Source of the DNA: Raillietiella orientalis
Taxonomy: Eukaryota
Direction of reading: 5' to 3'
Length of the DNA: 64,000 nucleotides
Assembly: GCA_036172245.1 (NCBI GenBank)
Contig: JAYWIR010000008.1
Span: forward strand, 5,022,001-5,086,000
The translations under genes were made by a program, and so were the position numbers. Of this stretch, positions 41,100 through 61,389 are shown in pieces (within the stretch, counting starts at the first letter, position 1; each line of letters begins with the position of its first letter). Under the pieces are notes generated by a model. It worked only from the letters and a program-made list of their open reading frames with translations. It had not been told where the DNA came from and did no database searches.

Positions 41100-44000
41100 C
41101 CTCTTTTCCCTCCTCACGGGTGTCACTTTGGGACTTCACACGCGTCGGAGGCAGCTTGAAGTGGGTCGGCAGTGGATGGACGCCTGTAGGTGTCGCCACC
41201 GCCATTCGATGCGGCTTCCTCCTTTGAAGTCGTTTTCAGGGTCTCTCTCCCTCTCTTTTGGTGCATCCTCTGTGCCTTCCATCCCTGCCATCCCCTCTCT
41301 TCTTGTGTGTGCGTCGCCGGATCCCACGTGGCGGCTTTGCCGAGGTCAGCGCGGGTTGTGCAACGCCACTCGTCATCCTCTGAGGGCCATCGGTCGACGT
41401 GCTTTTGGGTAATCGATTTTCGGGAAGCTCCGTCTTTATGTTCCCCGGTTTGGCTCCTTCCATTAAGAAATTGCAGGGCTCCCGGCACGTCGTGAAGTCC
41501 CTCTCTCGCCGGATGAGGAGGAGGGACGCCCGGAAAGGATTATCTCTTTCGCTCGATGCCGGCGAGCACGGATAGAGCTCGGGTTGCAGGCTTTGGGGCA
41601 CTTCCCAGGCGAGCGCTTTCCCCCTTGCAGTGGGTTTCCCAACGTCTCCTCTTCCTTCTCGCAGCGACCCACTGCGTTTTCACTCGTCGGTCCACCCGAC
41701 CGACTTCACCTTCCCCGCATTCTCTCCCCTTCTTTCTTCCTCCTCCCTGTTTTTTTTTTTTTTTTCGTTTTTTAACGCCGCTGGTGATCAGCCGCGATGC
41801 ACAGAAGTGCGTACTCTCCTTAGACACCAAAAGAGTTGCAAAGGAGGGAGTCCCTTGCCAGATACACCCCAGAAATTCGGGGACAGCTGGATCGCACCGC
41901 AGATTCCACGGACCGTCGCCCAGCGCGACAGTGCGGAACGGCGTCCGCGCCATGCGCTCGGGGATGCCCGAAGTAGTGTGGAATTCGATCCGTCCCTCCC
42001 CCTATCTCTCCCTCTTCGAAAGGGCGACGGAGCCTTCGTTCGGAGCGCACACGTAGGCGTAGCAGGCGCAAGGTAGTTTTCTTGCTCGCGGCCCCACGTA
42101 GTCGGGACGAATCCCCGCCTCTCTGTACCCGTAGACGCATGAAGAACGTGGATTTACCACCACTGGTCAGCCTTCCATAGATCGCGGTTCGGTGCCTCAA
42201 AAAGCACATCCAGGCGCACCTGAAAGAGGAGCGGGCAAGGTGGAGGGAGAGGATGGTGGTACCTGACCTCCATGGCACAGGCACTGTTTTCAAGGGCAGC
42301 TCCTCCGGAACCCAGGCTATCAAGAAGCTCTTACTCTGGACCTGTACGCATTGCCTCTGCCATCTGTCCCCCCCCCCCGCCCTGCCTCATGGATGTTGCT
42401 GCACCTTTCGCGTGTCCCAGAACAAAAAGGCATCTTTTTGGTCGCAACTTTTCTGGACTTCATCCTTCCTTCCTTCCTTTCTTCCTTCCTCGACTTCTTG
42501 ACCCTTCCCCGAGGCAGACTCTCCATGTCGTACCCTTTCGCTTTCCGTCCCATGCTCAGGGGAGAAGCAGCCGTTGTCCCGGCTTCTCCCCAACGAAAAC
42601 CCTTCCCGGGCACTTCTCGTTCTCACGGACGATAGCCTGCCCGCCCTTGCGTGGTCCCAGAGCTTTTTCTGATGACGTCACTTGCGATTTCCTTTGGCTG
42701 CGCTCTGCCCTCTCGCTTTCCCCGGCAATCCCGAGCCATTTGGCATTCAGACAGAGTCTTCTTGCGTTTCCTCTCCCCGGTGTCCCACAGACCCTGGGGA
42801 TCTCGTGCCCCCGTTTTTCCTGCATTTTGTGCACGCAGCGAAGAGCTTTCCAGAGCTCCATTGGCAGCAGCTCTCAACTCGATCTCGGTCTTTGGTCGTC
42901 GCGGCTGTCGTCAGTGTCGGTTCCCAAGAGAACGAGTTACCTGCTACCCTCTCCCTTTTTGCAGTCCCGCGCCGAATCTCGAGTCGCTTGTGCTGGGAGA
43001 GTTCTCCTCTTGGAGTTAGTGTCCACGCGGCACACCCACTACAGGTGGAAAGCGTGCCGCACAAAGCTGCAAAACGGAGGGAGGAGACGGAGAGGGCATC
43101 TCTCAGCACGCGAGTTCCACGCGCGCGATCTTCTGCCAGGAAGAGCGTGCCCTGTGTGCTCTCATTCTCCTTCCCCCTACCTCTCTTTCTTGTCCCCCTG
43201 TCCTGCGCTAAATGGGCGCCATGTCGGGCGGATGACGCCGCCCGTCGTGCACGAATCGTCCTCCATCCTTCCCCTCTCTAATGGTGTCACGTGTGTTTCT
43301 GTTAGGGCCGCCCAGAAAATCAGCATCCACAGTTTGTCGTCAGGTGGCAGGCGGAGACCGCCGAACGCCCTGGACCAGCGCGCTCCGGTGCATCATGGAG
43401 CCGCCGCGTCCCACTTCGCCGGGGTGCTGCAGACGTCTTTTCCTCCCACTCCGCCCGCGCTCATGCGGAATTTGATGAAGAAGGAGAGCAGCGGAATCGG
43501 AAAGGTGACGGCGCCTCTTTCTTTTCTTTCTTTCTTCGGGGGAGGAAGATTTCCTCGATTTTGCTTTGTCGAGCGCTACCTCTGCCGACGTCGGTCGATG
43601 GGTTTTGGGCCGCGACTTTCGTCGAACTCTCCCAGTTTTCCTGCGAGCGCCGCTTCGCTCTTTCTAGAACGGACCCGCCTACCGCGAGATGCATCCCTTT
43701 CACCTTTCTCTCTCCCTCTTTCTCTTCGGAAATTTTCCCCATCTTATTCCGGGCAGGACGATGACGCAGGGATTCCCTCTTGCAGGTGATCTTTCTATGC
43801 CTCTCGCCGCCAAGAAATGGAGGGAGACCTCAGCGTCCATCAGCTCCAATCCGGCCTTGCTTTGCCTTGCGACATGGCTCGTAGGTGGGAAAAACTGTTC
43901 TCCTTCCCTCCCTCCGGCATTTTCTCCCGAATGTTGCGCGTCCTGGAATATAGAGGTTCGGTCTCCAGAGCGTCCCAGTGCTTCCTCCTTCCGCGAACCC

Positions 44001-46050
44001 AGAGTCCTCGATCCCGCTCGCTCGGGGGAGGTCGGAGGGCGTGCACTCCTTCCTATGGAGCGTGCCCCGATTTCTCCAGTCAGGACAGCGGGGCCCCAAG
44101 TCGTGCATTCTTTTCCTGTCTTCGCTGCCTTTCTTCCGAGCTGCTTGAGATTCGCGTGAAAAGACTTGCACCCCATCAGAACAAAGCGTGACGTGACGCA
44201 AGAGTGGGGGCGCTCTACGAACCACGAGACGTTTCACTGCTGCGTGCCGATGTGTGGTGCATAGTCACAGCAAAACATGGCGCGACCGACAACCGGAGTG
44301 GAATCACTGGTGGTGCGCAGACTGCGACAGAAGCAAGGAAAAAGGAAAGATAAAGGCGAAGGCAAATGGCACATTCTTAAGCACCCGGCACTGTTGAGGA
44401 CGAAAATGCCTTTGCATGACGGCTCAACAGTGGATGGGGTACTTGGCATTGCTGTAGAAAGGATGACCCTAAAATGCGTTTTCGCCTCCTATGTTTTCTT
44501 CTCCGTTCTTTTTATTGTTTCACCACTTGAAGTGATTCTCTTCTCCTTTCTCGTTTCCCCTTGAATTGAAAAGTGATCGGATGATGAGCACTTTGGTACC
44601 GAAGCAGTCGGAAGAAGCCATCCTAAGAAGGATCTGAGAGGGAGAACGTTGCCTCGAGCCAATCCGCTCATTCGAAGTTCCCCATTGTTTTGCGAAGTGC
44701 ACAAGATCTTTCCAGAATCTGAGGCATGCTCCGCAAAGCTGCGAAAGCAGGACGCGACCCTTCGTTGAGTGAGCTTTCCTTCACCGGAGGCTTGAGTTCA
44801 CCCCTTTTAACTGCTTCCAACCTTCTCTTCCTCATCCAGCCGGAACCCGCCTGGAACACTGCAACCAGTTGTTCCTTCGACAGCAAGCGTGTCTGCCGCC
44901 TTCCTTGAAATGTGTTTGGGATCGCCGCCTCACTCTGTCGTCGCGTTTGCATCGAACATCATGTGCCCTTCCAGAATTTCCTGGATCCTGCAATGTGAGC
45001 TTCCCTTCCTCCGGAAGTGCGACAGTTCCGAAGCAGGTCCCCTCTTCTCTCATCCGTTTCTTCCTGTTGCCTCTCAAGCCGGAACCCGTTGCGTGCCCGT
45101 TTTCGTTTCCCGAAGCAGCGAACGGCTTGCCTGCGCCCTCCCTCCTCGCCCCCGTGTCCAGTAGTCCGGTCCCCGTCGCAAAGTCTTGCGGATTTATCTG
45201 GACGCAGTGAACTTTTCGAGTGGCCTCTATCCGACAGCGAGCCTCATGTATCGGCAACCGGTGGCTCAACTGGAAGATCCTCTTTTATGGCGTCTTCCTT
45301 GATGCCTGTCCCTTGTCCCTCCTGCTTGGGTGCCATATCTCGCTGACTTCCACTGTTCACCTATTTCTGCAACGTCTTCTCCGGGATCGCGAGCGGACAG
45401 AAAGAGAATGTGTCCTTCCGTGAGGAAACCTGCCCTGTCCGTGAGGAAGCAATCGGTCCACTCTTCTTCGTAGGTCGTGGGACGTCGAACAGTGTCCAAT
45501 CCGGAGCGCAGCATCGCCGCATCTCGTCGCAGGTGCTCTGCTGCCAAGAGAGCGCCACGTGCATCGCTGAGGTTCACAGACCCCTTTTCGGTCCTTCGCG
45601 TTCCCCGATTCTCCCCTCTCTTGCATCCATGCGTGTCCTGTTCTCAGCTGCTGTTGCCTGCACATCCCCCACGGCTCATCTCGTTGATGCTTTTCTTTCG
45701 GTGCTCTCTTTTCGCTTTTTGGCACGCGCTGCTTCCGGTGACCCGGCTGCTCGGGAAGCACCCTGGGGCGGTTTTGACGGCATTGCGACGCTTTGAGGAT
45801 GTTGGCGTTCCTCGTTCCGCTTCCTCCGGACTGGGATGGACATGGATGTCCCCTCTCTCCTCCCTTGCCCTCCTCGATAGCCGGAGCTCGAGCTGGACAG
45901 CTGCCTCACTGTGAGACTTCGGGGCACGCTGCCCCTGGGCCTTTCCCCGCACTCCGAAGCGTACAGCCACCTCTCTGACCCGCGCCTCCTCGTCCCCCCC
46001 GGGACAGGAATGCGAAACCCGCTTTCCCGTTTTTCCTTCTTCGGTCGCCG
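41100..46050 (-). mobile_element. Degenerate Ty3/Gypsy gag-PR-RT-RH-INT relic containing KIF26 exon 3
   Basis: Minus strand in order: QERGES / PTTYEE (gag); LVAVFQAGS..QILL (PR); DAEV..L.ARGIE..PCVIV (43843-43750); KDGGRFVHDGRR (43270-43235); FLAEDRARG..FAALCG (43143-43058); RGHEI..GTP (~42800); QPKE..GTT; AIYGR (~42180); PFRTVALGDGP (~41920); VD..TQWVAA; NG..HVD..W. Confidence 0.65.
43306..43504 (+). CDS. KIF26: KIF26-like kinesin, exon 3 (AAQK...FAGVLQTSFPPTPPALMR..KE..GIGK)
   Basis: ttag acceptor, phase 2 to 0, AAG|GTGACG donor; conserved KIF26 pre-motor motif. Confidence 0.92.
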
Positions 46051-46910
46051 CTCCAATTCTCACCAAATCATGCCCTCTTTGTCCTCCTTTCATCCGCCCT
46101 CTCCTCCACCCATATTTTCCACAGGGATCCCTCTTGTTCGATTTCGTTCACAGTGAAAAACATAGGGTTTTGAGCCACCGGCCCCTTAAGTGTGTACCTC
46201 CTAAAGTTGCGTCGTGCCTTCCCGGAAACTCTCTCCTGCCGTCGTCATTGCTTTCTATTCCTCCCTCTCCGAGGCGTGTTTCCTGCACGCCCACGCCATT
46301 TTCTGATGAATGGTTTTTTTGATGACTAACGAGCGCGCGTTCATCAGTCTTTCCTTCATGGTGTGAGAACACCCATGAGGAAGGAGGTGCAGAGGCTGCG
46401 TCCGTTCCCTTTCGTCGGCGGATGTTCTCTTGGACTCTGTTCTCACTACCTTCACCTACCGAAACTCGATCCCAAGCCCCGCCGATCGGCGAGGGGGAGC
46501 GAGTGATAAAAAAAAAAACAAAAAAAAAAAAACAAAATAATACAGGAGGTATCCTTCACCGCCTTTTCGGTGGTCCTCTGCGTCCTCTCGACGAGCGAGA
46601 GTGGGCTAAAGATGGGGAGGGTGGTCCGTTCGCCCCCGTTCTGGGAGAGCACGGCGGTTCTAAACCAGCACTTCTCCCTTCGTTTTTGCGTTTCTTCTTA
46701 CCTCTTTCATGGAAGCTCTTCGCACCGGAAGGGAAGCTGTGCGCTCCCATGAGAAACGGCAAGCAGGCATGACGTGAAGCGCCCGGTCTCTTGAGTGCTT
46801 CCAAGAATTATCGTCATCCGCGCCCAGGGGGGCCTTCTCGAAGGTGCGTGCCTGCGTGTGTCTTTCCTGGTATCTGTTCTGAAGCTTGAACAAAATCTCT
46901 CTCCTCCTCC

Positions 46911-46942
46911 CACACACACACACACACACACGTTTGCACACA
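46911..46942 (+). repeat. (CA)n microsatellite in an AT-richer patch
   Basis: Direct reading. Confidence 0.85.
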
Positions 46943-47149
46943 CTAGTGTGTTGAGATCACATGTATGTACGTTAAAAGTGTTTCTGTCCCTCCGCATGCA
47001 TATATGTTAAGAATCCACCTGTGCGTGTTACGTATCACGTATGTGCATATGTACTGAGGTCGTGTGTAAGCTTGCTGAGGTCGGTGCATTGTAGGAAAGG
47101 TCACATGGATTTGGAATTTTCCTCACCCTTTCGAGGGTCGTAGTGAAAC

Positions 47150-49100
47150 GGCACTCTTTGACTCGAGGTCACGTTCGTGTGGTCTCCGTCAGGTGGCTGG
47201 AGTGTCCATAGCGTTTCTCGAAGGCAAAGGCGGAGCCTTCAGGAAGCGTCTGCCGTTTTCCCTGCTTTTCGGTGTGCGCGCTTCCCGTCCGCGTTTCAAA
47301 GGTGAAACGCGAATGGGAAGTTCATGCGAAGTTCTGCAAGATCTCTCCAGTGGACGCGCAGGTCGGAAGGGAAGAAAGGGGTAAGGAAAGATAGATGGGA
47401 CCTGCTCCCCTGCCGCCTCGTCCACGTTCCCAAGAGACGCCGAAGAGCAGCGCGCCCCTGTCGGCTGTTGCGGAATTTCTCGGGTGGCAGGGCGGCGCTG
47501 CTGCGCTTCCCGGCGCACCTCCTTTTCCGCGCGCATTCAGCGGCTTTCTTCCCTCGTAGGGGAAGGAGAAGGGGCCAGCTGCCTGCTGGACACGATTTGG
47601 ACGCAAAGAGCCGTTTCCAGGGGCAGATTGCGTCAACTCCCCGATTCCTCCAAAGGATTCTGGGGGATTCCAGAGAAACCGACAACTTGGCGTTTCGGAA
47701 ATTATTGAGGGATCAGCGGGCGTGCGGATGAAGGAAAGGGAAAAGACTTTTCTGGTACAGGGAGGAGGATGCACCGGGATTTGGGAGGGGAACACTAATC
47801 CGAACTGCTGCTGGGAGGGACACCAAATAGGCAGTCCGCTGCCGCCGTCATCTTCTTCCGCCTCCCTTGTTCCGTTTCTCTCCTCTTTCTTGTGTCCACA
47901 TACATCGCTCAGCTTTTTTGTTTTTTTCCGAGAGTTCCATCGCTCTCCGGGCTTCGCTTACCAGGACCCCAGTATGCGGTCCTGGTCGCAGGTCAGCTTC
48001 CTACGTTTACGATGGAACTCTCTGCGCGAGCAAATCGTCGGACCACTTGTCGTTGAAAGCACGCGGAGACGACGACGCGATGCTGCTGCATCTCTGGCGG
48101 CGTTTTGCGCCTCTACCGATGTCGCCAGCGTCGCCGTCTTCTCCCCTTCTGCCCTTCTCTTTGCTCGGACTCTGGGTCGCGTGTGACGCGTTCGGGACGG
48201 AAAAGCGTACGGGGAGACCGGCTACAGTCTTCCCTGTTTTGGGTCCTCCGGCGCTGCTGGAGTAGCAATGGAGGCGACCTTCAAAACGGCTGAGCATCCG
48301 GGATGGTCGGGAGGACTTCTTCCAGCGGAACACGAGCGCAATGCGGGTGCTCCGTCCACTCGAGGTGGCGCGTCACGGGACGAGCAGCGTGTCTCCGGAG
48401 GCTCGGCGTGCGGGGACGCAGCTGGGCGTCCGCACCAGCCGGCATCGCACCAGCCTCGTCCCGCCCGCGCCCATCGCCACACCTCTTTGCTCCGGAAGCC
48501 GCTCCCAGAGGACCACCACAGATTGGTCGGTGGTCGCCTTCCACCACCCGCGTTCGCAGAGCCGCGCGTGTCCTCGGCCCAGGGCCGTCATTGGTGGCGG
48601 TAGAGACGGTCATAGTTGCAGCAGGAGAGCCAGCTGTACACCGCTTCTTGTCCATTTCCTCAAGGCGGCCGCCGACGTCCTTCCTAAGGAGTCCGTCCAT
48701 CCTTCGTCCTTTCCTACACTTGCGGAGTGGGGCATTGCCCGGAAACGACAACTCCTTCGCGCCCACCTCGCTCTCCCTCGAATCTATGGCGCCGCCATTT
48801 CCGATCTCCGTTTCCCGAAGACTCAGAGCGCCGCCTCACGGGAGCAAGGAGGCCGTTCTCCACTCTCCCGTTAAGATAGCTCCTCTTGCTCCCAAAGCGC
48901 TTCTTCTGACCAAGGGAAGGTCGCGACGCGATAGAGCAAAGCCGCGGTTCCCTCGCTGTTGATGTGGCAACGGCGTGAAGAAGACCTTTCCCTCTTTTCG
49001 TTTCCCGCTCTGTGGCGAAGCTGGGAAGGTGCGCGCTTAGGGGGCCGCTCCAGTGCGTTTTCCCGTAACCACGGACATTCACCTAGCGCCGCAGCGGGAG
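47150..49100 (-). mobile_element. Ty3/Gypsy RNase H - integrase relic
   Basis: Minus strand EPRLCSIASRPSL (P.AyASR.L, ~48930), RLEEMD..G..T.T (~48650), PSIISE..F...F..IG (P.IISD.G, ~47700). Confidence 0.5.
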
Positions 49101-49464
49101 GGGGGAGGGAGAACAAAAAGTCCCGAAGGATTTTTACCGCTGCATGCCGGGAGGGGCGGCGGGTGGAAAAGGAAGCGAACCCCTCCCGGCTTTCGGTTCC
49201 CGGCGTCCTTCCGAGAGTCGTCATCATCGGCGCCAGGGTCGATGCGTTGTCGTCTCGTCTTCCAGGTGTGCGCAATTCCTCCTGCCTCGACGCGCCTTGA
49301 AAGGGAGAGGAGGCGATCCCAGCGAGGATGGGGAGGAGGAGGAGGGCGGAAGAGGAAGAAGATGCGCTTCCCCCCTTCTCCCTTCGTTCGCAACGGCAGC
49401 ACAGCACGCCCCCGCTCCCGGTAGGCAGGCAGAACAGCTGCACCCTATTTTTAAACTCCTCCCG

Positions 49465-50350
49465 TGCGAGGACGCCGCCGCCGCTGCCTGCCTTTCTGAG
49501 GAACCGCCGGGGGACTGGGAACGCGCGTGCGGACGGAACGGGAGGCCGCTGATCCCCGACCGCTTCCAAGAAAGAAGAGGAAGAAAAGGGGAGCCCCCTC
49601 TCTCCCTCCTCTCCCCCAAAGAAAACAAGCGGGATAAAAGGGAAACTAATTTTCGTCCTCCCGTGTGGAACGGTCGCGTCCCGCGCCGACGGTCGATTCC
49701 TCCTCGAGTTTTCCGGAGAGGACGGAAGTCTTCTGCTCCATCAGCCCCCGGATGCTGCGGTGGCGCGCACCTGAATGGATTTATTGTTTTATTGCAGATT
49801 TTCCGCCTCCAGGGAAACACGGGCCTCTCCGGCCGTCCCTTTTTTCCGCACCCGGAATCCGTCGCGCGGATCTTCCCCGTTTTGCTTTTTTGAGTCACGT
49901 ACGTCTCCCGCGCTCGTTTCCCCGGGACGCCGGGGAAATGGCCGGCGGGGGTAGCCCGTGGTGGAGGCGTTGACGTCATCGCCGCCGCCTCTTGCTCTCC
50001 TTTATTGATCGCGCGGCGAGCTCCGTGCCCTCCCCTCCTGCTCGCGGGGAAGAAGGACCAGCCGACCCTGGTGCTTCGCTTATGCCGCAATGGAGCGAGG
50101 GTTGCATCTGCGGGCCGGGTCGCCTCGGACCATGGCCAGTGACGCTGCCGGGTGCCCTCCCCTTCGAGTGCTTGGGCGTCCTCTCTCCCGATGCTGCTGG
50201 TGGACGACCGACTCCCACCCAGAGGCTCCACTCCCTCGTCGCTGAGGGGGGAGTTGAGTCTGTCCTTGGGGACCTCTTGTTCGCGTCCTATCTCGCAGTT
50301 TGGATGCGAGGACGCCGCCGCCGATGCCTGCCTTTCTGAAGAACCACTGG
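49465..50350 (+). repeat. ~45-bp near-identical direct repeat, 840 bp apart
   Basis: TGCGAGGACGCCGCCGCCG(c/a)TGCCTGCCTTTCTGA(g/a)GAACC at 49465 and 50305. Confidence 0.85.
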
Positions 50351-53199
50351 GAAGGGGAGGTCAGGCTCAAACCTCTTCAGAGTGGGGACCCTTCCGTTCC
50401 CTGTATCTTCTGGCGGTCTGGGGCGTGCCACGCCTGCCCACGGGGAAAGGGAAGGAGGGATGGAACCTAGCACGAGCTCAAGTCGGTGCCATCCGGGAAG
50501 AAGCTGCGTCTGTGGGGTGAGTCCCAAGGGAGCAGCGTCCTGAGGAGCCGACCAGATCGATGCCAGGCCCTCCCATTCCTTCCGGCTCCTCCGCCGCCTC
50601 TTCTCCATCCCCGTAGGGTTCGAGGACCGGACTTCAGGATTTTCAGCTTCCGGGGTTGACCATGGGACTTTGCACGTTCGCAGGAAGTTTCCTGGAAGGG
50701 GAAGGGCAGCGGCGGAGGCGCACTGGCGGTCTCATTCCCGGTCGATCTCCCAGAGACTCTCTTCCGCAGGTGGCCTCTTCCGTGGATAGGCGCTGCCTTG
50801 CGGAGCACGTGGGCAGGATCCTCCCTTCCCGCGTCGCTGCTCCCGGGAATTCCGGAAACTTCCGAGTTCCTCCGCGCCCCCGTCCCTCGCCGCAGCGTGG
50901 TTTCGGAACTGCGCGATTTGTCCCATCCACCTCTTCCCTTGTCCACCTCTAGCACGTCCACGTCGGTGGGAGGAGCACGAAGGACGCTGCGGGAAAACGT
51001 TGCAGCAGAGCGTGGGGCCGTGGTGCGTGGGGGAACGGCCGTGGCGGTCATGAACGACCTGAACGGCGTCCATCTATCGGGTCTCGTCTGATAGCGATGA
51101 TCTCGGTCCCTCCTCATCTTTACTGCCTCTCTCCGTGCCGCTGGGAAGCCCACAAGGTTCCATCGTGGCCGGCGCGCGCGCTGTAGATTCTCGCTTTCCC
51201 TCCTTCCTCCTCCCTGCCCACCCGCTTGGCACTCGCTCCTCCCCTGGCCGCGACGGGAGACAAATCGCGCGTCACGCGTGCCGTGTCGTCCCCCGGTCGT
51301 TTTCACCATGCGCCGCGTGAATGTGCCCCTCTCAGCTTCCGCCTCCCTCCTTGATGGAGGCGCGCGCGCGTACGCATCGATCGCAGGGAGGGAAGGTGGA
51401 ATTCCTTGATGAGACGGCTACCGCTCGGGGCAGGGGACTCCCTTCTTCTGCTTTCTTCCTCTCCCCTTAAAAGAAACGGATGGGGAATGGGGTGGGATTG
51501 GATGAAAGCTTGGGTGGTGGAGAAACGGCGGCTGCCATCGTGGTCGGCGCGCTTTCTTCCCTTTTGAGAAATCCCGTGCATTCCAGACGAAGGTGATGCT
51601 GCGCGTCCACAAGGATGCGCAGGGGCGAGAGAGTGGCTCGCAAGCCTTCTTCAACGTCGACAAGAGGAAGAAGCAGGTCACCCTGTACGACCCGGCGGTC
51701 TCAGCCGCTTACGACTCGGCGGCACTGCCTACGGTATCGCCGTCCTCGCCTTCCCTGGAGGGCGGTGGCGGCAGTAACAGCAGCAGCAGGCGCATCGGAG
51801 TCAGCGCCCCCAAGATGTTCGCTTTCGACGCCGTGTTCTCGGAGGACGACTCCTTGGTGAGTGTCCTCTGAGCCCCCGTCCGCCACCCTCGTCCATTCTT
51901 TCCTTCCCTTCCTCCCTCCCTCCCTCCCACCCATCCTCCCCTTTCCCCCGGGGCTCGTCCGTCCCTTGCCAGTTTGGATCGCAGGATCGTCAGTCCCTTG
52001 CCGCTCCTTGCGCGCCCGATCGTCTTTTTTTCCCGGAAGTCCGGAGGCGACTTTCGCTCCTGCTCACCCAGGCGTAGTTCCGTCCTCCACGCTTCTCGTC
52101 GCTCTCTGGGAAGCTCTTTCGCTTCCGTTGCCGGCTCCCAAGCGTGCGTGGCGCCGGCCCAACGTGTCCCGGACGGCGTGGCCGAGTTGCGGCGCGCCGC
52201 CCGCCTCATCTCTCTTGCCGTCCTCCCCTTCTCGTATGCGCCCAGAATACTCCACTCACGCTCCTTTTACGGCAGAAAGGGGTCCTCCCCCTTCCTCCGG
52301 AAGACTCGTAAATCCTGACGGCGCGGACGCTGCGAGGGAAGGGGAAGGCGGGTGACCTGTACGGTAGGGCGAGGACCTTCTCAAACCGCCGCTCTGAGTC
52401 CCCTCCCCTCCCCTCGGCCTCTTCGGCAGGGCGGGACCGGCGCGTCCCGAGGTCCCGCGCGGGATGATCTTCAAGAGAGGCGTCACGCAAGAAGGGGAGA
52501 GCATTCCGTGGGAAGGCAGGAGGAAGAGAATCGGGCGCGAGCTCGGGGACTCTCTGCCTCCTTGTCCGGTCTTCGGCAGGCCCCGGTCGAGGGTAGCATC
52601 GTCCTCTAGCCCGTCTGTCTGGCAAGCTCAGGGGACGGAAGCTGAGGAGACGGGGAGAGACCCTCCAAACAACCCAAGATGTCCTGGCCGCACCGTGCGC
52701 GCGCGTCCTCCTCTCGCCCTGAGGCTACCTACCATCAGCTTTCCCGACGTTCTTTCCTCCGTCGGGAATGCAGTAGTCTGTAACCTTCCTGATTTCCTTC
52801 TCACGCAAGTTCGGGAGGCTTCCTTTAGGGCATCCTCCCTGCCTGGTGGGTCCTGCAATCGTCTCCCCCTCGTGGATGCGCACCGGCAGGATGCGCGGAG
52901 AAAAAAGGGAAGAAGAAAAAGACAGCAGACAAAGGGTGACGGAGTGAATCAGTGGGACGCACTCCCTTCCCTTTTTTTCGAGCCCCTCTTCCTACCCTGA
53001 GGGCGTGACCTGAAAAAGAAGAGACCGAGGAGGAGGGTCTTCTGCGTCTTCAGGTCGTCCTCTCCCGTACGTCTCCGCCGCCGCCGGGAGTGACAAAAAA
53101 CTTACTCCCCCTCCTTCCCCTCCTTCCCTCTCGAGCCTCCTTACCCCTCCTCCCCAGACGCCCTTGCGTGAAGGTCAGGATGACGTTTTCTCCTGGCAG
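50100..53199 (-). mobile_element. Degenerate Tx1/L1-like ORF2 relic (linker - RT - C-terminal domain) containing KIF26 exon 4
   Basis: Minus strand in order: GDVRERTT.EDAEDP (GA.vRSR..w.E.gEkP, ~53085-53030); PGHLGL (PGPDG, ~52680); LPPAF..; EKVLA (~52375); DFREK..ILRSKLARDG.APG..WV..KNG (52041-51885); [exon]; HGISQ (~51575); RDHRYQTR; VL.VDKGRGG (~50940); FPVGRR..P..EE (zf relic, ~50440). Confidence 0.7.
51587..51856 (+). CDS. KIF26: KIF26-like kinesin, exon 4 (motor start KVMLRV..VDKRKKQVTLYDP..APKMFAFDAVF)
   Basis: ttccag acceptor, TTG|GTGAGT donor, diagnostic KIF26 motifs. Confidence 0.96.
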
Positions 53200-53293
53200 T
53201 CGGAGATTTGCGGCAGCGCGCTGACAGATGTGATCCACGCCGTGATGACCGGCTCCGACGGCTGCGTTCTCACCTTCGGGCACTCCGGACTAG
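53200..53293 (+). CDS. KIF26: KIF26-like exon 5 (SEICGSALTDVIHAV..GSDGCVLTFGHSGL)
   Basis: cag/gtgagg sites; first half of the P-loop. Confidence 0.96.
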
Positions 53294-53379
53294 GTGAGGC
53301 CAAGTGCGAGAGAGCGAGGAGCACCCTCGACCTCCCCTTCTCTTCCCCGTGCCCCTCGTGCTCCGCTGCCGCCCCGCAG

Positions 53380-53577
53380 GCAAGACGTATACGATGCTGG
53401 GACATCCGGAGTCCTCTGCCACCCTCGGCGTCATCCCCTCGGCAATCAGCTGGCTGTTCCGGGCCATCGGCGACCAGAAGCAGCACGCGGGCACGCGCTT
53501 CTCGGTGCGCGTGTCGGCTCTGGAGATCTCCGGACCGGAGGAAACCACCCGGGACCTTCTCTCCGGCTTCGAAAAAG
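53380..53577 (+). CDS. KIF26: KIF26-like exon 6 (GKTYTMLG..LGVIPSAISWLFR..RFSVRVSALEI..RDLL)
   Basis: P-loop completion, kinesin motifs, phase 1-1. Confidence 0.96.
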
Positions 53578-53647
53578 GTTGATTCCCTCCCCTTTTAGGA
53601 ACGTGCCTCCAGCTCCCTTTTCCCTCCTCTCCCTTCTGCCTCCTCAG

Positions 53648-53848
53648 ACGCGGAAGAGTCTCCTGGCACTTACCTGGACGCCCTTTACGGCGTCCAGCTG
53701 CAGCATTGCAACGAGCTGCGGGCCCCGACGGCAGAGAGGGCCGGCTACTACCTAGACGCCGCTTTGGCTGCCCGGGAGCCGTCCCCTACCAGCCACATGC
53801 TGTATACCATCCACCTGTACCAGTACAACGCGGACAGATGCGGAGGAG
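53648..53848 (+). CDS. KIF26: KIF26-like exon 7 (ELRAPTAERAGYYLDAALAAR..SHMLYTIHLYQY)
   Basis: Diagnostic KIF26 motifs, phase 1-1. Confidence 0.96.
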
Positions 53849-53906
53849 GTACGTTCGCCGTCCCACCGTCTTCCTCCCTGCTCCCTTACTACGATCTCGG
53901 CTTCAG

Positions 53907-54202
53907 GAGGGAGAAGTCGACTGCACCTGCTCGACCTCGCCGGAGGCGACCGTCAGGGGAAGACGGGGCTGCCGCTGTCTTCCATCGGCAACATCATCCT
54001 GGGCATCTTCAACGGCCAGAGGCACTTCCCGCACAAGGACAGCCGGTTGGCCGCGTTGCTGAGGAACGTCCTCAGTTCACTGACCTGCCAAGTGTCCATG
54101 CTCATCCATGTGTCCCCTCTGACCTCGCGCTACACGGAGACGCTCTCTGTCGTGCAGCTGGCATCGCGGATACACCGGATGAGGGCGCGGCGCGCCAGGG
54201 CG
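53907..54202 (+). CDS. KIF26: KIF26-like exon 8 (GRSRLHLLDLAG..GNII..NGQRH.PHKDS..ETLSVVQLASRIHRMR)
   Basis: End of motor domain; ttcag / gtgagt sites. Confidence 0.96.
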
Positions 54203-54301
54203 GTGAGTGCGCCGCCGCCTCCGCCCTTCCTCGCGCGTCTCCCTCAATCCCGAACTGGTGGGCATTCGCCCTTTTTCCTCCCACCTTCCTCCGTTTTCCA
54301 G

Positions 54302-54958
54302 GGTTTCTTCGGCAACCGGGACGACCTTCTCCACGCGAGGCAGAGGGCCGCCAGAGTCGCCGAGGAAAGCAGCCCCAAGTCCAGCAGCGAGGTCGACCCG
54401 TCCAGCAGCGAGCAGTCCTGCGACACGGTCATCTACATGGGCCCGGCCGACGACCCCACGGATGGGGAGCAGCCCCCTTCCTCCCGCGGACCAGGAGACA
54501 GGATTCCCTGGACAGCGGCGGCGGCGACCGCAAAGCTCGGTGGTGGCGCCGCTGACGCCTTCCCCGCGAAAGCCCCGGCGAGTGGCGCTTTCGGACCGTC
54601 AGGTCGCGACCCCGCGAAGGAGAGGAGTTGCTGCTGTCCCTCCTCCTCCTCCTCCCCGACGAAGCGACCTCCGGTTCCCCCTCCCCTTCCTCCTCCTCCC
54701 GCCACTCCCGGTCCTCCCCGCTCCTCCTCTCCCCCATCTTCCTCCTCTTCCTCCTCCTCTTCCGACTGCTGCCGCTCCCGCGAGAGATCCGCCGATCTCC
54801 CCAGGGGATCGCTGCTGGCGCAGTCCAGGAGGCACCTCAGGTCCGAGAAAGACAGGGAACAACGCTCGCCCCACCTCTCCCGCCGTTCCCCTCCGGCCTC
54901 CAAGGTGAAGGCGAGCGATGAAGAGTGGATCGACGGTCCCCGCTTCTCCAAGCTCAAG
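54302..54958 (+). CDS. KIF26: KIF26-like exon 9 (SSSEQSCDTVIY..TDGE.PP..EEWIDGPRF)
   Basis: Conserved KIF26 SSSEQSCDTVIY motif; AAG|GTATGG donor. Confidence 0.93.
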
Positions 54959-54959
54959 G

Positions 54960-56250
54960 TATGGGGGGGGGGACGGAGGGACCCCTTTCTCCCACCTTCC
55001 AAGCACTTCGGTTGTCTCCCGGGAACAGCTCACCTCTCCCCCCTCCCTCGGTGGTTCCTCTTCCGAATCGCACCGAAGAGCGTCCGGGCCCAGTGCGCTT
55101 TGCGCGATGTTCTCGCGCGATGCGGACCGGCGATCGGGCGGCGACTCGTTCTCCGCCTCCTCCTCTCCCGTGCATGCACGCTCCTTCCGGTGGGGCACCG
55201 CCGGGAGACGTACAGTCCACGACCTCCGGTTTCTCCCTTCCTTGGCGGCGGCACCCGCCATCCGGCTGCTCTCGGACCCGGATTTCGGGGGGACTTCTCG
55301 TCCCCGCCCCCCTTCATCGCTTCTGCCTAGGTCCCGCGGCATTTCGATCCCCGGGCGGTCGCAGCCAGTACTATAAAGGACTCTCCCTCCCTCCGGCAGC
55401 ACGCCGTCCCGAATACGAGGACACGGATGCTCCCCTCAGCATCCGGATCCTAAGGTTCCTTTGAAACGGGAGGAGAGTACAACAGCGCCCATTGCCACTG
55501 CCGCCGCCACCACCGCCGTTTTTGTTCGGCACCTGCCATCCCTTCTACCCCAAAGACACCGAAGACATCCGGTGCTCTTGAACTGCCTCTGGCCGCACGG
55601 CTCTTCGCAGAGCAATCAGCGCTGCTCAGGATTGCCGGAAGCTGGAATCGATGATTTGCCGTTTCCGGAAACAGTTTGCCGGACGAGGAGGAAGGGAAAA
55701 AGGATGGCTGACCCCTGAACCTAGATTGCGGCGGTTTGGTTGCCCTCCATCGCACAGGCCATCTGCGGAGGGTATTGTGCCGCTGGCGAAACGGCTGCCA
55801 TTCATCCCGGAAACGCTCCTCGCTCCGGACCGCGCGCGCCGGAGGACGACTTCCCTCCGGTGGTCGTCTTCATCGGCATAGACGAGCGCGGTGTTCACGG
55901 GCGCCGGGCTGTCCACTTTGCCCGGATGTTACCAACGAGTCATCGTCGCCTCGCTCCCTCGCCGCCGCCGCCGTCGGAGCCACTCCGGCACAGCCGTCAC
56001 CTTCGGTTTCCAAGCTCGGAATCCCGAGGGAATTTCCAATCCAGTGGGTGCACCGCGGACTCATTCGACGCGGTTTCCTGGATGCGGGTTCCCTTTTCGA
56101 TGCTTGCTTTCGGGTTCCGGACTCTCCCTTGTGGAGGTGCTGGTGCGTCTGCCTCTGGGGAGACGTCCCCGTCTGGGGTTGCGCCTTTCTTCCTCTCGCG
56201 TTGCTACCGGCGTCGCCGTCGGCGCCGCTCCCTCAAAAAAAGATCCTTAC
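54960..56250 (-). mobile_element. Second Tx1/L1-like RT and C-terminal relic
   Basis: Minus strand KGTR.Q..MSP (~56090-56060), LVYADED..SVSG (~55885-55810), LGRSDEGGRG (~55320). Confidence 0.55.
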
Positions 56251-57436
56251 TTTCTGTAGCTTCACCCGAAGTCGCACGCTCTGAAATGAGCGGCGCTCTA
56301 CGGCGATAGGTACCCCCCGTCACTCGCCCTCCAGTGTGGGTGGGTGCCTGGGTCGCCCCGCAGGCCCGACTTCCTGGTCTCCCGGCTCGTTCCTACCGTT
56401 CGCTTCCCTCCCACGCTTGCTTCTCCAAGGTGTCCACCTTGGAGATACAGCAGCGGCTGACTTCGTCAGGACCTCTCTGCCTGCGCGCAGGACCGTGGCA
56501 GCGGACGGAGGGGCGTGCCGCCGGGCACGCGACAGGGAAAACCGAAGGGGAGGGACGAGCGGCAGGGGTCCGGTGTCTGCCGCAAGCGTCCGGGATCCTT
56601 CAAAGGAGCTGCGTTCCGGAGCAGGTCGAGATTCATCGTGGCTGCTGCCTGCCGGTGCTCCTCTGGCGCAGTGGCCATCCCTGCTTTCCCGGAATCGGAA
56701 TGCGGACTCTCTTCCCTGCACGCGGATGCAGAGCTCGCGGTGCCGTGTAGGAGGAGGGATGGCTGTGGCTGCCGACTGCCCCTTCCTCCAGTGGCGGCAG
56801 CGGACGTGTGCCCGGGGACTGCAGAGTGTTTATCAGTAATGCAGCATCCGGTAGTAAAATCCAAAGCCTCGGGAGCGGTTCATAAAAAGGATCCGTGTCT
56901 CCGGGATGAGTAATGGACACGGTACACGGGCACCGGGATTATACTGGGAGCGCATTCTGTTCTGCTAAGCTTCGATTAGGACTGGAGCCGGGCGCCTCTG
57001 AGCAGCAAGATAACTTCCACCGATCCACCGGGCTGGATCATTAACGTCATTCGGACGCGCGGAAGAGATGATTTACAGAACGGTAATTTGGAAAAAAAAA
57101 AAAATTCCTGTCGGAAGGTCGAAACGATCTGCAGCCCTGATTATTATCTCCCCGTTTTGATATCATCATCGTTGATTAAAGGAAGGAGAGGAACTAAAGG
57201 CTGGCTCACTACGCCGGAGGACTCTCTCTGCCGGTCTTCCCGCTTGGCGCGCAGCCGTGCGAGCCAGCGGGCACGGCGGTGGGCGCAGGCATCTCCGCGC
57301 TGAGGCAGCGAGCTACTTCGTGCGTGCGGAAGCACCATGTGGGGGCGGCGGTGTACGTGCGTGTCTTTCGCAGGGAGCGCGCCGTGAATTTCTGTTTGTC
57401 GTGGGTTGGGGGTTGTGTGCAGCTGTCGACGTGCGT

Positions 57437-57570
57437 ATGCACACATATCATATGCATGCACATACACACACACGTGGGTGTACGCATAAACATACATACA
57501 CATACATTTACATATGCACATGCATAGGCGCATGCACGTACACTTACATATGTATATGCAACACACGTGT
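57437..57570 (+). repeat. Imperfect (CA/TA)n purine-pyrimidine microsatellite
   Basis: Direct reading; inserted in the Gypsy RNase H relic. Confidence 0.9.
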
Positions 57571-58054
57571 GTTAAAAAGTCCAGCGTATTTTTTATTTTA
57601 TTTTTTTGGCCCTGTTCCCTTCCCCCCCCCGAATGCTCGACGGTTGCTATGGAATCAAGAGACCTGCATGTGCTCTTATCAGTTAGGCGTAACTTTTTAC
57701 GAGCGGAGGTCCAGAGTGATCACTGGCGTCACTGCAGCCGGGAAGCGGGCGGACATCCTCTGAGAGGCAGCGTCCAAATTGCGCTTTTGGGGTATCGAAT
57801 GCCCGGGGACGCCGCCAGTCGAATTCTCTTCGGCAGCAGCGGTCGGGGTGACTGCGTCCGTGTGGCCGCAGCCGTCCAAGGAGGGAGAGGCTTTCGCTTT
57901 CTCCTCCTTCCCGCTGGCGGGAGGTTGCGAATGGCCTTCGCGTGCCGCCGCCGGAGGTACGGAATCGGTCCCGGTACGCATCGTCTGGTCAGCTTCCCTT
58001 CCTCCTCCTTTCTTCCTTCCCCCCCTCACCCTCTTCATACGGTCTCGTTTTCAG

Positions 58055-58627
58055 GTGGCCGAGGGTCGCCGACTGAAAATTTCCAAGCAGGAAATGTGGG
58101 TGGACGGACCTTCCAGACCCGCCTCCAGCAGCGTTCAGCAGGCGAACGTCAAGAACGTCCAGGCGATGTACGCGTACATGGACGATCACAAAAAGCTCAT
58201 GATCGAGCGTTGGGTGGAGACGCACGCCCAGCACGCGGAGATCCCCGCGGAAATCTGGATCGACGGGATGAACGGCGGTGCCGACCTGCCCCGCAAGGAC
58301 ATCGAGACTGCTGCGAAAGACGATCCCTCCTCCGAGGTGGCCGATCGCTCCTCGAAGAACGGTCCGGAAGACCTGACCTGCAGAACGGCAGAGGTCCGTG
58401 GCACAGCGGCGGAAGAGTCCCGCGAGGGCGCCTCGTCCGCCGTCGGGACGGATCACGACGGCCGGGAAACGCAAGGATCCTCGAAGGAAGTCTCCATCCC
58501 TCTTGTGGTGGAAGCTGCTCAGGAGAAGTGGCACCCGGAAGGGCAGCACTGGGATGACGAGGTTTTCGAAACGATCGAAGTTCCGGAACGCGACGAACCG
58601 ATCCCCATGACAGACTCGAGCGCTCAG
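58055..58627 (+). CDS. KIF26: KIF26-like exon 10 (EMWVDGP..YAYMDDHKKLMIERWVE..EPIPMTDSSAQ)
   Basis: tttcag acceptor; invertebrate KIF26-type WVDGP / MDDHK..MI..WVE motifs. Confidence 0.9.
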
Positions 58628-58672
58628 GTAGGGAGTGTTCGTTCCCGACCCTTCACTCGAGGACGTGGCCAG

Positions 58673-58811
58673 GTGACGGAAGAGGACATCTGTCGCTGCA
58701 TGGCCAAGCTGACCATGAGGAGGCCAAGCTGTGAAACCACCGAAGACATGTTCGACCATCCTCTTAGGATCTTGAGCGAAGAAAATCTGACGGTCGCTTC
58801 GACCTTCACAG
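58673..58811 (+). CDS. KIF26: KIF26-like exon 11 (VTEEDI..DHPLRILSEENLTVASTFT)
   Basis: Restores the Q|VTEEDI motif after removal of a 45-nt GT-AG intron; G|GTGAGT donor. Confidence 0.88.
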
Positions 58812-59823
58812 GTGAGTTTTCTGCGGGCAGATTGCAGGCGGGGAGGCTGCCTCGTTATCAGCGTGGGTGCTCTTTCGCGGCTCTCTGGTGCGTGTCTCGG
58901 AAAGGAAAGGACTTCTTTTGCCTTCTGCAAAGTCTCTCCCCCCCCCCCCCCTTCCTCCATTAATTCATAAACGAGATCCCCTTCTTTTGTGGAAAGCTGT
59001 CAGACTCTCAGACTTATTGCTTCAACAGCAGCAGTAGCAAAAGTCGCCTCTGCAAGCACCAGTTTGAAATTCGAAGCGCAGCGGATCGGGGTCGCTCCTT
59101 GCCTGGGTCCTTCTCGTTGTTGAGACTGACTCTTTTTTCCGCTCGCGATCTTCAGCAGTGCACCAGAGAGGGTCTCTTCTTCTGCCCACCCGAGCCAGTC
59201 GGCAACCCCACTCAGGGGCATCTTGAGAGCTCAGCTCCTTGTTTCCCCTTGTAGTCCCACCACCACCACCGCAGGTTTCGTTTTCAGACGAGAATCTGCA
59301 CAATCACCTACCTATCCCACTTGCGATGCCGCCGACGAGCGCCTATCGCTCGTATGGAGACCACCAGAATGTTGACCGTGTTGTTGCTGCTGCTGCTTTC
59401 TGACCGGTCTTTCCTAAGTGCGCACCGCCTGGTTTCTCCCGAGGCCAGACTCCGTTGCACGGGGCGCTTTTGCGTCCCTGAGGTCTCAGAGGAGGTCCTT
59501 TCAGGACTCTCCTCTTCCCGGTAGCTATTACGTAGATTCAGCCCATTCGTTTCCCGTCAGGGCTGCTGCTGCTTTTTGTCTCTCTGTCTTCGCAAGGCCC
59601 ACCTTCTTCGTCGGCCACTGAAGACCAGAGGCGGCGCGTTCGCTTCCGTGAGGGCTTCCGGGGGGTTTTGGTGTTTGAGAGCTCGCATCCACGGTGAGTT
59701 CTCCGACCACGTCTGGGGGACCTCCCGCCGCCGTGTACCTTGCGCGCTACTTTCCCTCGTCAGTCCTCTCGTGACTCCTCGAGTTTTCTCCTTTCCACAT
59801 GTCTCCCTCTCTCCTTTTCCCAG

Positions 59824-61164
59824 ATCCATACTCCATGAGGGAAGGCGAGGGAGATGACAGCAGCAACCCATTCGATGACATCCCGGACTACAAGCAGCTC
59901 TACGATCTCAGCATATCCAAGAACGAGGAGTACTTCGCGAAGCGCTTCCATTACGCGGACGAGGTCATACGGCATCCGTACGTGTCGAAAGAGGCGACCA
60001 AGGTCCCCCTTCGCTGTGAGTCCGCCTCGCTGAACCAGATGCTGTTTGGGGGTGTCGGCGGCCCGTGCGTCCCCAGCCAGAACCTCGTCTGCAGCAGCTG
60101 CAAGAGCAGCATCCTGCGGGCTGGGCCCCAAGACAAGCCGGTGGCGTGTCCTCAGGAGACTCCATCGTCGCTGGCGCCAGCGTCTCAGCCGACTTCCCTC
60201 GTCGCGGCGCCAGAGGCCGCAGGCGCCGTCGGAAGGGAAGAGAACTCCGCCTCTCCCGCCGCTGTGGCGACCGCCTCCACCGCCCCTCAGGGAGGTGGGA
60301 CGAGAAGGCAGGACCAGCCTGGCGGATCGCTGGGAAGGGCAGAACCGAGGTCCGGCCATGCCAAGGTGGCTTGTCCTCACCTTGCTGCATCCACGGGGTA
60401 CCAGCCCGAGGTGGCGGCTGACAGCTCCCTCAGCAAGGAACCGGGGCCGGCCCACGTGTACGAAAATCCGGAGAGCTGGACGAAGGCGGCGAAGAGGATT
60501 CCCGGAAGCGTCTCCGAGGAGAAGGACGCATTTCGAGATCCCCCATCCCCGATCTCCCGAGTCGATAGTGACAAGGACTTCCTCCGTAAGAACAAGAACA
60601 GCTCCCCATCGAAAAGCGAGAAAGTCAGGATCGGCAAGTTCTCCAGGATCCTGAGGAGTCCCGCCAGGGACTGCTCTTCCGCAAGGAAATCCTCCAGGAC
60701 AAAAGTCTACGAGGGTCACTCCGATTGCCCTTCCCACGAATCGTGCCCAGCCGTCGCCGATCTACCGAAACCGTACAAAGTCAGCAGCAGCGCTCCTACT
60801 ACCCCGCAGAGACAGCCCCGGAAAAGCTACCGGCCAAACCTTGCGGAAGAGAACCCCATAAGCTACCAGCCCCCTTGGCACCAGCAGCATTCCCAAAACA
60901 AGAACGCCTTCCCCTGTGACACGTGCTCGCCCTCCTTGGAGACGGAAAGTTATGAGAGTGAAAACGATTCCGGGGTGGTTGCCAGGGTCCACAGAGGAGT
61001 CCGGGTGAACACCTCTGCCAAAGAGCTGAAAGGAGTCATCCACTCGCCTTCGCTTTTGTGCGAGAGTTCCGGCTATGAGAGCGTCGGGATGCTGAGAGAT
61101 TCCGAGTGCAATAGTCTCATCTCGAGTCAGGACTCCGAGCAAGCGGACCACCACTCCAGCCCAA
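59824..61164 (+). CDS. KIF26: KIF26-like exon 12 (large low-complexity exon with NDSGV and SSGYES..RDSE)
   Basis: Polypyrimidine-cag acceptor, phase 1-1, open 1341 nt; conserved KIF26 SSGYES motif; A|GTACGT donor. Confidence 0.9.
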
Positions 61165-61389
61165 GTACGTTTTCTCAGCTTCCTTTTTCTTTTAAGGGGA
61201 CTTCCTCCTCCTCCTTCGTTCAGCCCTATCTCGTTATCCTCTCTCTTCCTCCCCCTTTTCCTGTTCGGTTCTCTCTCATGTGTTTCCCATCCTTTTTCTC
61301 CTCTTCTCCCCCTCTTCCTCGTGTCCTTCAATGACACTCACCGGCGAGCTCGCCGTGTCTTCAACATGCTTTGCTTGCCCCTCGACCAG

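Follow-up and report, generated by a model that had tools for sequence, protein, structure and literature searches.

Positions 58628-58672 (+) of the window, by which I mean the whole 64,000-nt stretch of Raillietiella orientalis DNA analyzed here, are probably a genuine U2-type GT-AG spliceosomal intron of 45 nt, in phase 0, that would interrupt the tail-coding part of a KIF26/CG14535-like kinesin gene. The GT occupies 58628-58629 and the AG 58671-58672, and the 45 nt, equal to 15 codons, lie without a stop in the frame of a + strand stop-to-stop ORF (57764..58963), flanked upstream by ...PMTDSSAQ, which is of the type EPxPMxDSxxQ, and downstream by VTEEDICRCM... (VTEEDICRCMAK...); left unspliced, they would be translated into the Arg/Gly-rich, 15-residue peptide VGSVRSRPFTRGRGQ. 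A first-pass annotation of this DNA had already pointed to a short, in-frame, stopless GT-AG stretch at 58628-58672, and both its coordinates and its properties proved correct on the sequence. The stretch is 62% GC, and since arithmetic from composition predicts that about one in five 45-nt introns at this GC would be stop-free and in frame by chance, that state is unremarkable by itself; what goes beyond chance is the exact agreement of the GT...AG limits with those of a 15-residue gap that the homologues show within a motif that is invariant elsewhere.

The host gene

The host appears to be an arthropod-type KIF26/CG14535-like kinesin gene on the + strand, with the 45 nt located in its C-terminal tail. 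The 64-kb window contains 210 stop-to-stop ORFs with a length of 150 aa or more; when these were scanned against Pfam, a single one passed the curated cutoff, with a Kinesin match (PF00225; E 4e-12, 46.2 bits against a cutoff of 29.3) in the ORF at 53756-55327 (+), and the matches below cutoff were NeA_P2, YMF19 and NOGCT. Within window positions 1-43000, no ORF of at least 150 aa passes the Pfam cutoff, despite a GC content of 59-68% and many long open frames. The translation of the motor exon matches 538 proteins, and the named ones among the best 120 of these 538 are all arthropod; the named best homologues are all KIF26A/B or CG14535. For the tail, the query was the 252-aa translation of 58055-58810, which among longer proteins matches 49 arthropod KIF26A/B or "CG14535" kinesin-like proteins, and which in a search restricted to homologues of nearly its own length found none at E<=0.001 among 694 candidates. 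Similarly, an exhaustive phmmer search of 1.84 billion representatives returned 37 tail matches, none of them with E<=1e-30 and none above 57% identity, and it seems that the databases hold no close orthologue of this kinesin.

What the gene has in common with KIF26A, KIF26B and insect CG14535 is the Pfam Kinesin motor together with a series of tail motifs, namely SSSEQSCDTVIY, WIDGP (twice), YxYMDxHK..MIxxWVE, EPxPMxDSxxQVTEEDI, HPLRILSxENL..STFTD and SSGYES..RDSE, whereas it differs from those proteins in bearing the 45-nt interruption and in an identity that reaches at most 57-59% even in the conserved blocks. Six arthropod homologues aligned by tblastn lay the gene out on the + strand between about 43.2 kb and a point past 61.1 kb, and in window coordinates the KIF26/CG14535-like gene spans at least 18 kb (43163-61300, +). 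The smallest of its introns has 45 nt and the largest about 8 kb (43520-51583), another measures 3.1 kb (54959-58054), and thus short and long introns coexist within a single gene.

Three further short GT-AG introns in the motor domain are defined by homology, at 53294..53379 (86 nt), 53578..53647 (70 nt) and 53849..53906 (58 nt), all on the + strand, and the last of these carries a candidate branch site, CTTAC, 18 nt from its 3' end. The 86-nt intron falls within the P-loop region, at window positions 53280-53400 (+), whose sequence is GHSGLG|KTYTM where the homologues show GH(A/S)(G/K)LGK(S/T)YTM; this sequence departs from the P-loop of typical motile kinesins, a difference that has been reported for KIF26. 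In the large exon 53907..54958 (+), the C-terminal portion of the kinesin motor is encoded (LHLLDLAGGDRQGK...), and the tail begins there as well (SSSEQSCDTVIYMGP, EEWIDGPRFSKLK).

This large exon is followed by the 3096-nt intron at 54959..58054 (+), with the donor AAG|GTATGG, across which the homologues run from ...DGPR.SK.K straight into the next WxDGP block. Inside the intron, an imperfect CA/TG-rich, microsatellite-like tract lies at 57430-57570 (acatacatacacatac..., gcatgcacgtacac...), and it is followed by a T-rich stretch and next by a C run near 57590-57632. The exon upstream of the 45 nt, 58055..58627 (+; 573 nt, 191 codons), was delimited from tblastn of the six arthropod homologues and from the homologue searches; it begins after the acceptor ttttcag|GTG at 58054/58055 and encodes MWVDGP, YAYMDDHKKLMIERWVE, EIWIDG and ETIEVPERDEPIPMTDSSAQ. 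The exon downstream, 58673..58811 (+; 139 nt), encodes VTEEDICRCMAK...DHPLRILSEENLTVASTFT and ends in phase 1 before the donor G|GTGAGT, and this exon end can be considered conserved because six homologue models or fragments (P0099, P0161, P0163, P0173, P0174 and P0177) read through the donor after STFT as "STFTG...". The next intron, 58812..59286 (+), measures 475 nt if its acceptor is ttttcag|AC at 59286/59287, and this is most likely the acceptor in use, judging from the conserved D that follows STFT in the homologues and that the junction would supply (STFT-D). Beyond 59286, homology provides no support for a further exon.

Evidence for an intron at the Q|V junction

One argument comes from the motif itself. 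In the homologues, the block reads ...E(E/P)xxEPVPMxDSCLQVTEEDI...HPLRILSQENLTVxSTFTD and is invariant, in the present gene the ...EPxPMxDSxxQ|VTEEDI... part of it is split by the 45 nt, and deleting exactly these 45 nt restores ...TDSSAQ|VTEEDI.... Within the first set of 49 homologues, Q is followed directly by VTEEDI in 48, and the 49th does not include the region. The larger set of 177 homologues has the Q|VTEEDI motif contiguous in 141 (131 by a strict pattern and 10 more by a looser one), while 35 of the others, most of them matches confined to the motor exon, are without the motif, and the remaining one carries an insert at that same position. When the homologues are aligned, by tblastn or by MAFFT (21 segments), they show a gap of 15 residues whose limits are exactly those of 58628-58672, as can be seen, for example, in the tblastn row of P0047.

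Codon composition points in the same direction. The third position is G or C in 6 of the 15 codons of the stretch, compared with 450 of 588 (76.5%) in three homology-supported exons (binomial P=0.0026), and just 6 of 546 exon windows of 15 codons, the lowest 1.1%, have a third-position GC as low as this. The codon composition of the 45 nt is therefore intron-like.

These same observations bear on the proposition that the 45 nt are a lineage-specific insertion of 15 residues which is always translated, with the GT...AG ends being a coincidence. The stretch is indeed in frame and stop-free within a long ORF, and the tails of KIF26 proteins are otherwise highly variable in length between their conserved blocks; however, the position lies inside a conserved block and not between blocks, it is the same site at which other arthropods appear to have an intron, the third-position GC falls within the lowest 1.1% of exon windows noted above, and a random 45-nt insert would be expected to start with GT and end with AG in only about 1 of 256 cases. 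Taken together, I regard an always-translated insertion as quite unlikely. A spliced intron, in comparison, would have company in the same gene, where the other homology-defined GT-AG introns include those of 58, 70 and 86 nt.

The splice sites of the 45-nt intron are CAG|GTAGGG for the donor and GGCCAG|GTG for the acceptor. There are 11 pyrimidines among the 20 positions before the terminal CAG, where the gene's three other short introns have 14, 19 and 14 of 20, and the earlier description of this intron as having no polypyrimidine tract thus holds insofar as the tract is weak, but goes too far in that it is not wholly absent. A scan with the branch-site consensus yTnAy finds a single candidate each in the 45-nt and the 58-nt introns, at comparable distances from the 3' end (17 and 18 nt, respectively); in the 45-nt intron this is TTCAC, whose A is separated by 28 nt from the 5' end and by 17 nt from the 3' end. 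The expected course of events is that the spliceosome would pair the donor CAG|GTAGGG with the acceptor CCAG|G by intron definition, probably using TTCAC, 17 nt from the 3' end, as the branch site, and that excision would restore the conserved peptide Q|VTEEDI.

Some features speak against the spliced-intron reading. Pyrimidines make up just 11 of 20 positions at the 3' end; the candidate branch A lies 28 nt from the 5' splice site, less than the minimum of about 35 nt given for flies in PMC5762160; the in-frame, stop-free state makes retention compatible with a full-length protein; and an intron between Q and V is not universal, four fragments or models being unbroken there. Nevertheless, the proposal that the 45 nt are an intron at Q|VTEEDI, which the first-pass annotation had made from the letters of the DNA, is now supported by homology, by codon composition and by a position shared with other arthropods.

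Intron position in other arthropods and the origin of the 45 nt

Intron positions in relatives can be deduced from protein models and fragments that disagree with one another, and this is the approach taken here. Two models from the cockroach Periplaneta americana, P0089 and P0099, differ exactly at both ends of the exon that matches 58673-58811. P0089, a RefSeq isoform, reads ...DSCLQVTEEDI...STFTDSMS, while P0099 has 38 extra residues that end in ...IYIVSQ just before VTEEDI and about 10 extra residues after STFT(G). The latter entry is labeled "hypothetical protein ANN_05195, partial", and it seems to have been mis-called at both boundaries of the VTEEDI...STFT exon. The ...IVSQ at the end of its 38 extra residues resembles the translation of a pyrimidine-rich 3' splice site with a terminal CAG. 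Similarly, P0173, a fragment of 74 aa, begins with the unrelated sequence MYVRPTLNTCHGVVQ and enters homology from VTEEDI onwards. Since P0099 and P0173 both enter homology at VTEEDI after unrelated sequence ending in Q, we infer that a phase-0 intron between Q and V also exists in other arthropods, at least in one cockroach.

The position is not found everywhere, as P0161, P0163, P0174 and P0177 run unbroken across Q|V, yet read through the donor after STFT. The Q|V intron would thus be present in some lineages and absent in others, while the phase-1 intron after STFT appears to be widespread. As to whether the Q|VTEEDI position is conserved in relatives, a check that the first-pass annotation had recommended, the answer is mixed: P0099 and P0173 point to an intron there, and the four other fragments or models are without one.

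Now considering where such a small intron came from, one could imagine a recent gain, either by tandem duplication of an AGGT-containing exon segment (the Rogers model) or by insertion of a small repeat. CAGGT does occur at both ends of the intron (58625-58629 and 58670-58674), and ACTCGAG, which the intron contains, is also present within the final 45 nt of the upstream exon. However, local alignment of the intron with its flanks does no better than with shuffled sequences (a fraction of 0.11 of the shuffles reaches the score for the upstream flank and 0.38 for the downstream flank), in-register identity amounts to 15/45 and 14/45, the best composite in-register score, 17, is reached by 31% of random 45-mers from the window, and a second copy of the 45 nt was not found in the window. 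Furthermore, the position held in common with the cockroach fits inheritance, or parallel gain at a proto-splice site, better than it fits a recent duplication, and a recent gain is accordingly to be considered very unlikely. Neither a duplication nor a repeat origin finds support. Given the shared position, an old intron that shrank would be the simplest account, and parallel gain at a CAG|GT proto-splice site may serve as an alternative.

Retention and comparison with known short introns and exitrons

Introns of this kind have been described in other systems. According to PMC5762160, the "ultra-short" introns of Drosophila measure 40-50 nt, have weaker 3' splice sites with a branch site at about -14, and are spliced more slowly; short fly introns frequently lack a pyrimidine tract, and the minimal distances in flies are about 35 nt from the 5' splice site to the branch and about 15 nt from the branch to the 3' splice site. 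The conventional lower limit of animal introns is put near 30 bp in PMC13644364. Given these two descriptions, a 45-nt arthropod intron with a poor tract belongs to a known kind, and the feature studied here is most likely an ordinary, if minimal, arthropod intron. The likeness of the putative intron to the Drosophila ultra-short introns (PMC5762160) covers the arthropod host, the GT-AG ends, the length of 45 nt, the weak tract and the nearness of the branch candidate to the 3' splice site (17 nt here, a mean of about -14 there), and it has its limits: the 28 nt between donor and branch candidate fall short of the minimum stated in that paper, and the present intron is not AT-rich, being 62% GC in a GC-rich host genome (62%).

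A second comparison is with human short introns that have truncated pyrimidine tracts and that need SPF45/RBM17 instead of U2AF (bioRxiv 10.1101/784868; PMC8363638). Like them, the present intron is short and its 3' end is without a normal pyrimidine tract; unlike them, it belongs to another lineage and has 45 nt where the model intron of that study has 56 nt, and the likeness is one of sequence only.

The third comparison is with exitrons, and it brings up the question of whether the 45 nt are always removed. Retention of the 45 nt would be in frame, and the sequence alone is for this reason compatible with retention or with facultative splicing. An unspliced transcript, being a multiple of three longer and containing no stop, would be expected to escape nonsense-mediated decay, and it would give rise to a 15-residue Arg/Gly-rich insert (VGSVRSRPFTRGRGQ) within the motif. 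One can therefore conceive of a facultative, exitron-like intron that is spliced in some transcripts and retained in others, producing two full-length isoforms that differ by 15 residues. In its favor are the invisibility of retention to nonsense-mediated decay that comes with a stop-free length of 3n, the weak pyrimidine tract, the lower speed at which ultra-short introns in Drosophila are spliced, as described in PMC5762160, and the existence of exitrons as a described class (PMC4484396 and PMC10985678). Against it, the in-frame and stop-free state is expected by chance in roughly one fifth of 45-nt introns at this GC, the insert would interrupt a motif that 141 of 177 proteins have in contiguous form, which argues against a tolerated isoform, and a third-position GC of 6/15 is unlike coding sequence. 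Exitrons share with the 45 nt a stop-free length of 3n, a location within coding sequence and a longer protein upon retention, but they have an exon-like composition and reside in annotated coding exons (PMC4484396, PMC10985678), whereas here the composition is intron-like (GC3 6/15) and the segment is missing from the homologues. On balance, facultative splicing seems rather unlikely. One step further, the 45-nt intron might act as a regulated switch, in which retention would place the 15-residue peptide in EPxPMxDSxxQ|VTEEDI to create an isoform with altered partner binding, and this I would hold to be unlikely.

The Gypsy reverse transcriptase reading of the minus strand

The first-pass annotation had gone further than proposing an intron, and had read the reverse complement of the 45 nt as the LGHxIS.EG motif of a Gypsy reverse transcriptase (RT), with three successive introns forming three successive pieces of that enzyme. 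The peptide behind the first claim, "GHVL-SEG-SGTNTP", turns out to be assembled from minus frame 2, which reads GHVLE and then meets a TGA, and minus frame 0, which reads SEGSGTNTP (LATSSSEGSGTNTPY), so that a 1-nt frame jump over a stop is needed to obtain it. The second claim fares no better, as no RT match is found in Pfam or the PDB, and the introns themselves had been mis-delimited in two of the three cases: the "previous intron" at 57650-58054 is just the last 405 nt of the 3096-nt intron 54959-58054, and the "next intron" at 58812-58960 covers no more than the first 149 nt of an intron whose 3' end is most likely 59286.

For the comparison with RT, each piece and each frame was scanned separately. 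In 57147-58999, the minus strand has 15 stop-to-stop frames that reach 20 aa or more, and none of them matched an RT family in Pfam at E<=10, the only returns being sub-threshold noise (RSN1_7TM, E 3.5; OMP_b-brl_4, E 0.025; HV_Gp350_C-term, E 0.07), and the whole-window scan of 210 ORFs of at least 150 aa contained no RT, integrase or RNase H families at E<=0.01. An antisense stop-to-stop ORF of 336 aa, at about 57989-58999 (-), overlaps two kinesin exons and the 45-nt intron, and it is probably an open antisense frame of the sort typical of GC3-rich coding sequence; it has no Pfam match, and a phmmer search of the PDB with this ORF gave 0 matches at E<=10. Also, no [YF]xDD motif, searched for as [YF][VILMA]DD, exists in the three minus frames of 58673-60500, the region N-terminal to the claimed motif. 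Pfam, PDB and YxDD searches were thus uniformly negative, leaving the proposed relationship with no RT similarity above chance, the very outcome that the first-pass annotation had named as refuting its reading, and the RT part of that reading is accordingly refuted. The sole YMDD nearby is on the + strand, in the kinesin tail motif YAYMDDHK (58175-58186), for which the homologues have Y(G/A)YMD.HK. YMDD also occurs as a catalytic motif of reverse transcriptases, and its occurrence in YAYMDDHK is a coincidence that could mislead a reader of motifs.

It should be acknowledged that the string is uncommon. The window contains a single instance of the pattern GH[VIL][VIL] followed, 0-9 nt on and in any frame, by [ST][DE]G, namely the one at the 45-nt intron, compared with a mean of 0.1 over 20 block shuffles, but the pattern was set post hoc and is one of many possible RT motifs. 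Weighed against this single point, the idea that the minus strands of the 45-nt intron and its two neighbors are consecutive pieces of a decayed Ty3/Gypsy RT requires the frame jump across TGA, goes without an RT match in Pfam and the PDB at E<=10 and in the 210-ORF scan and without a [YF]xDD motif, and depends on "introns" of which 2 of 3 were wrongly delimited. Furthermore, between the supposed pieces lie conserved kinesin exons with boundaries held in common with insects, an arrangement that a single inserted element cannot explain. Put differently, the likeness to Ty3/Gypsy RT (Pfam RVT_1, PF00078) amounts to just seven residues (GHVL / SEG) taken from two joined frames, and unlike a true member of that family, the region has no profile match, continuous frame or YxDD, and its pieces alternate with host exons. 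A decayed RT is so improbable that it can for practical purposes be set aside, and the minus-strand "RT motif" is best regarded as a chance reading.

Discussion

The interpretation favored here, a 45-nt spliceosomal intron in the tail of a KIF26/CG14535-like kinesin, has no bearing on retrotransposon biology, and the case rather illustrates that GC-rich antisense sequence readily lends itself to the reading of short "motifs". Should retention turn out to be regulated, the feature would be a minor instance of an in-frame micro-intron that switches between protein isoforms. The practical value of the finding is as an annotation caveat, in that gene predictors whose lower limit for introns exceeds 45 nt would miss this intron and report a KIF26-like protein with a spurious insert, and those 15 residues would fall in the most conserved motif of the tail.
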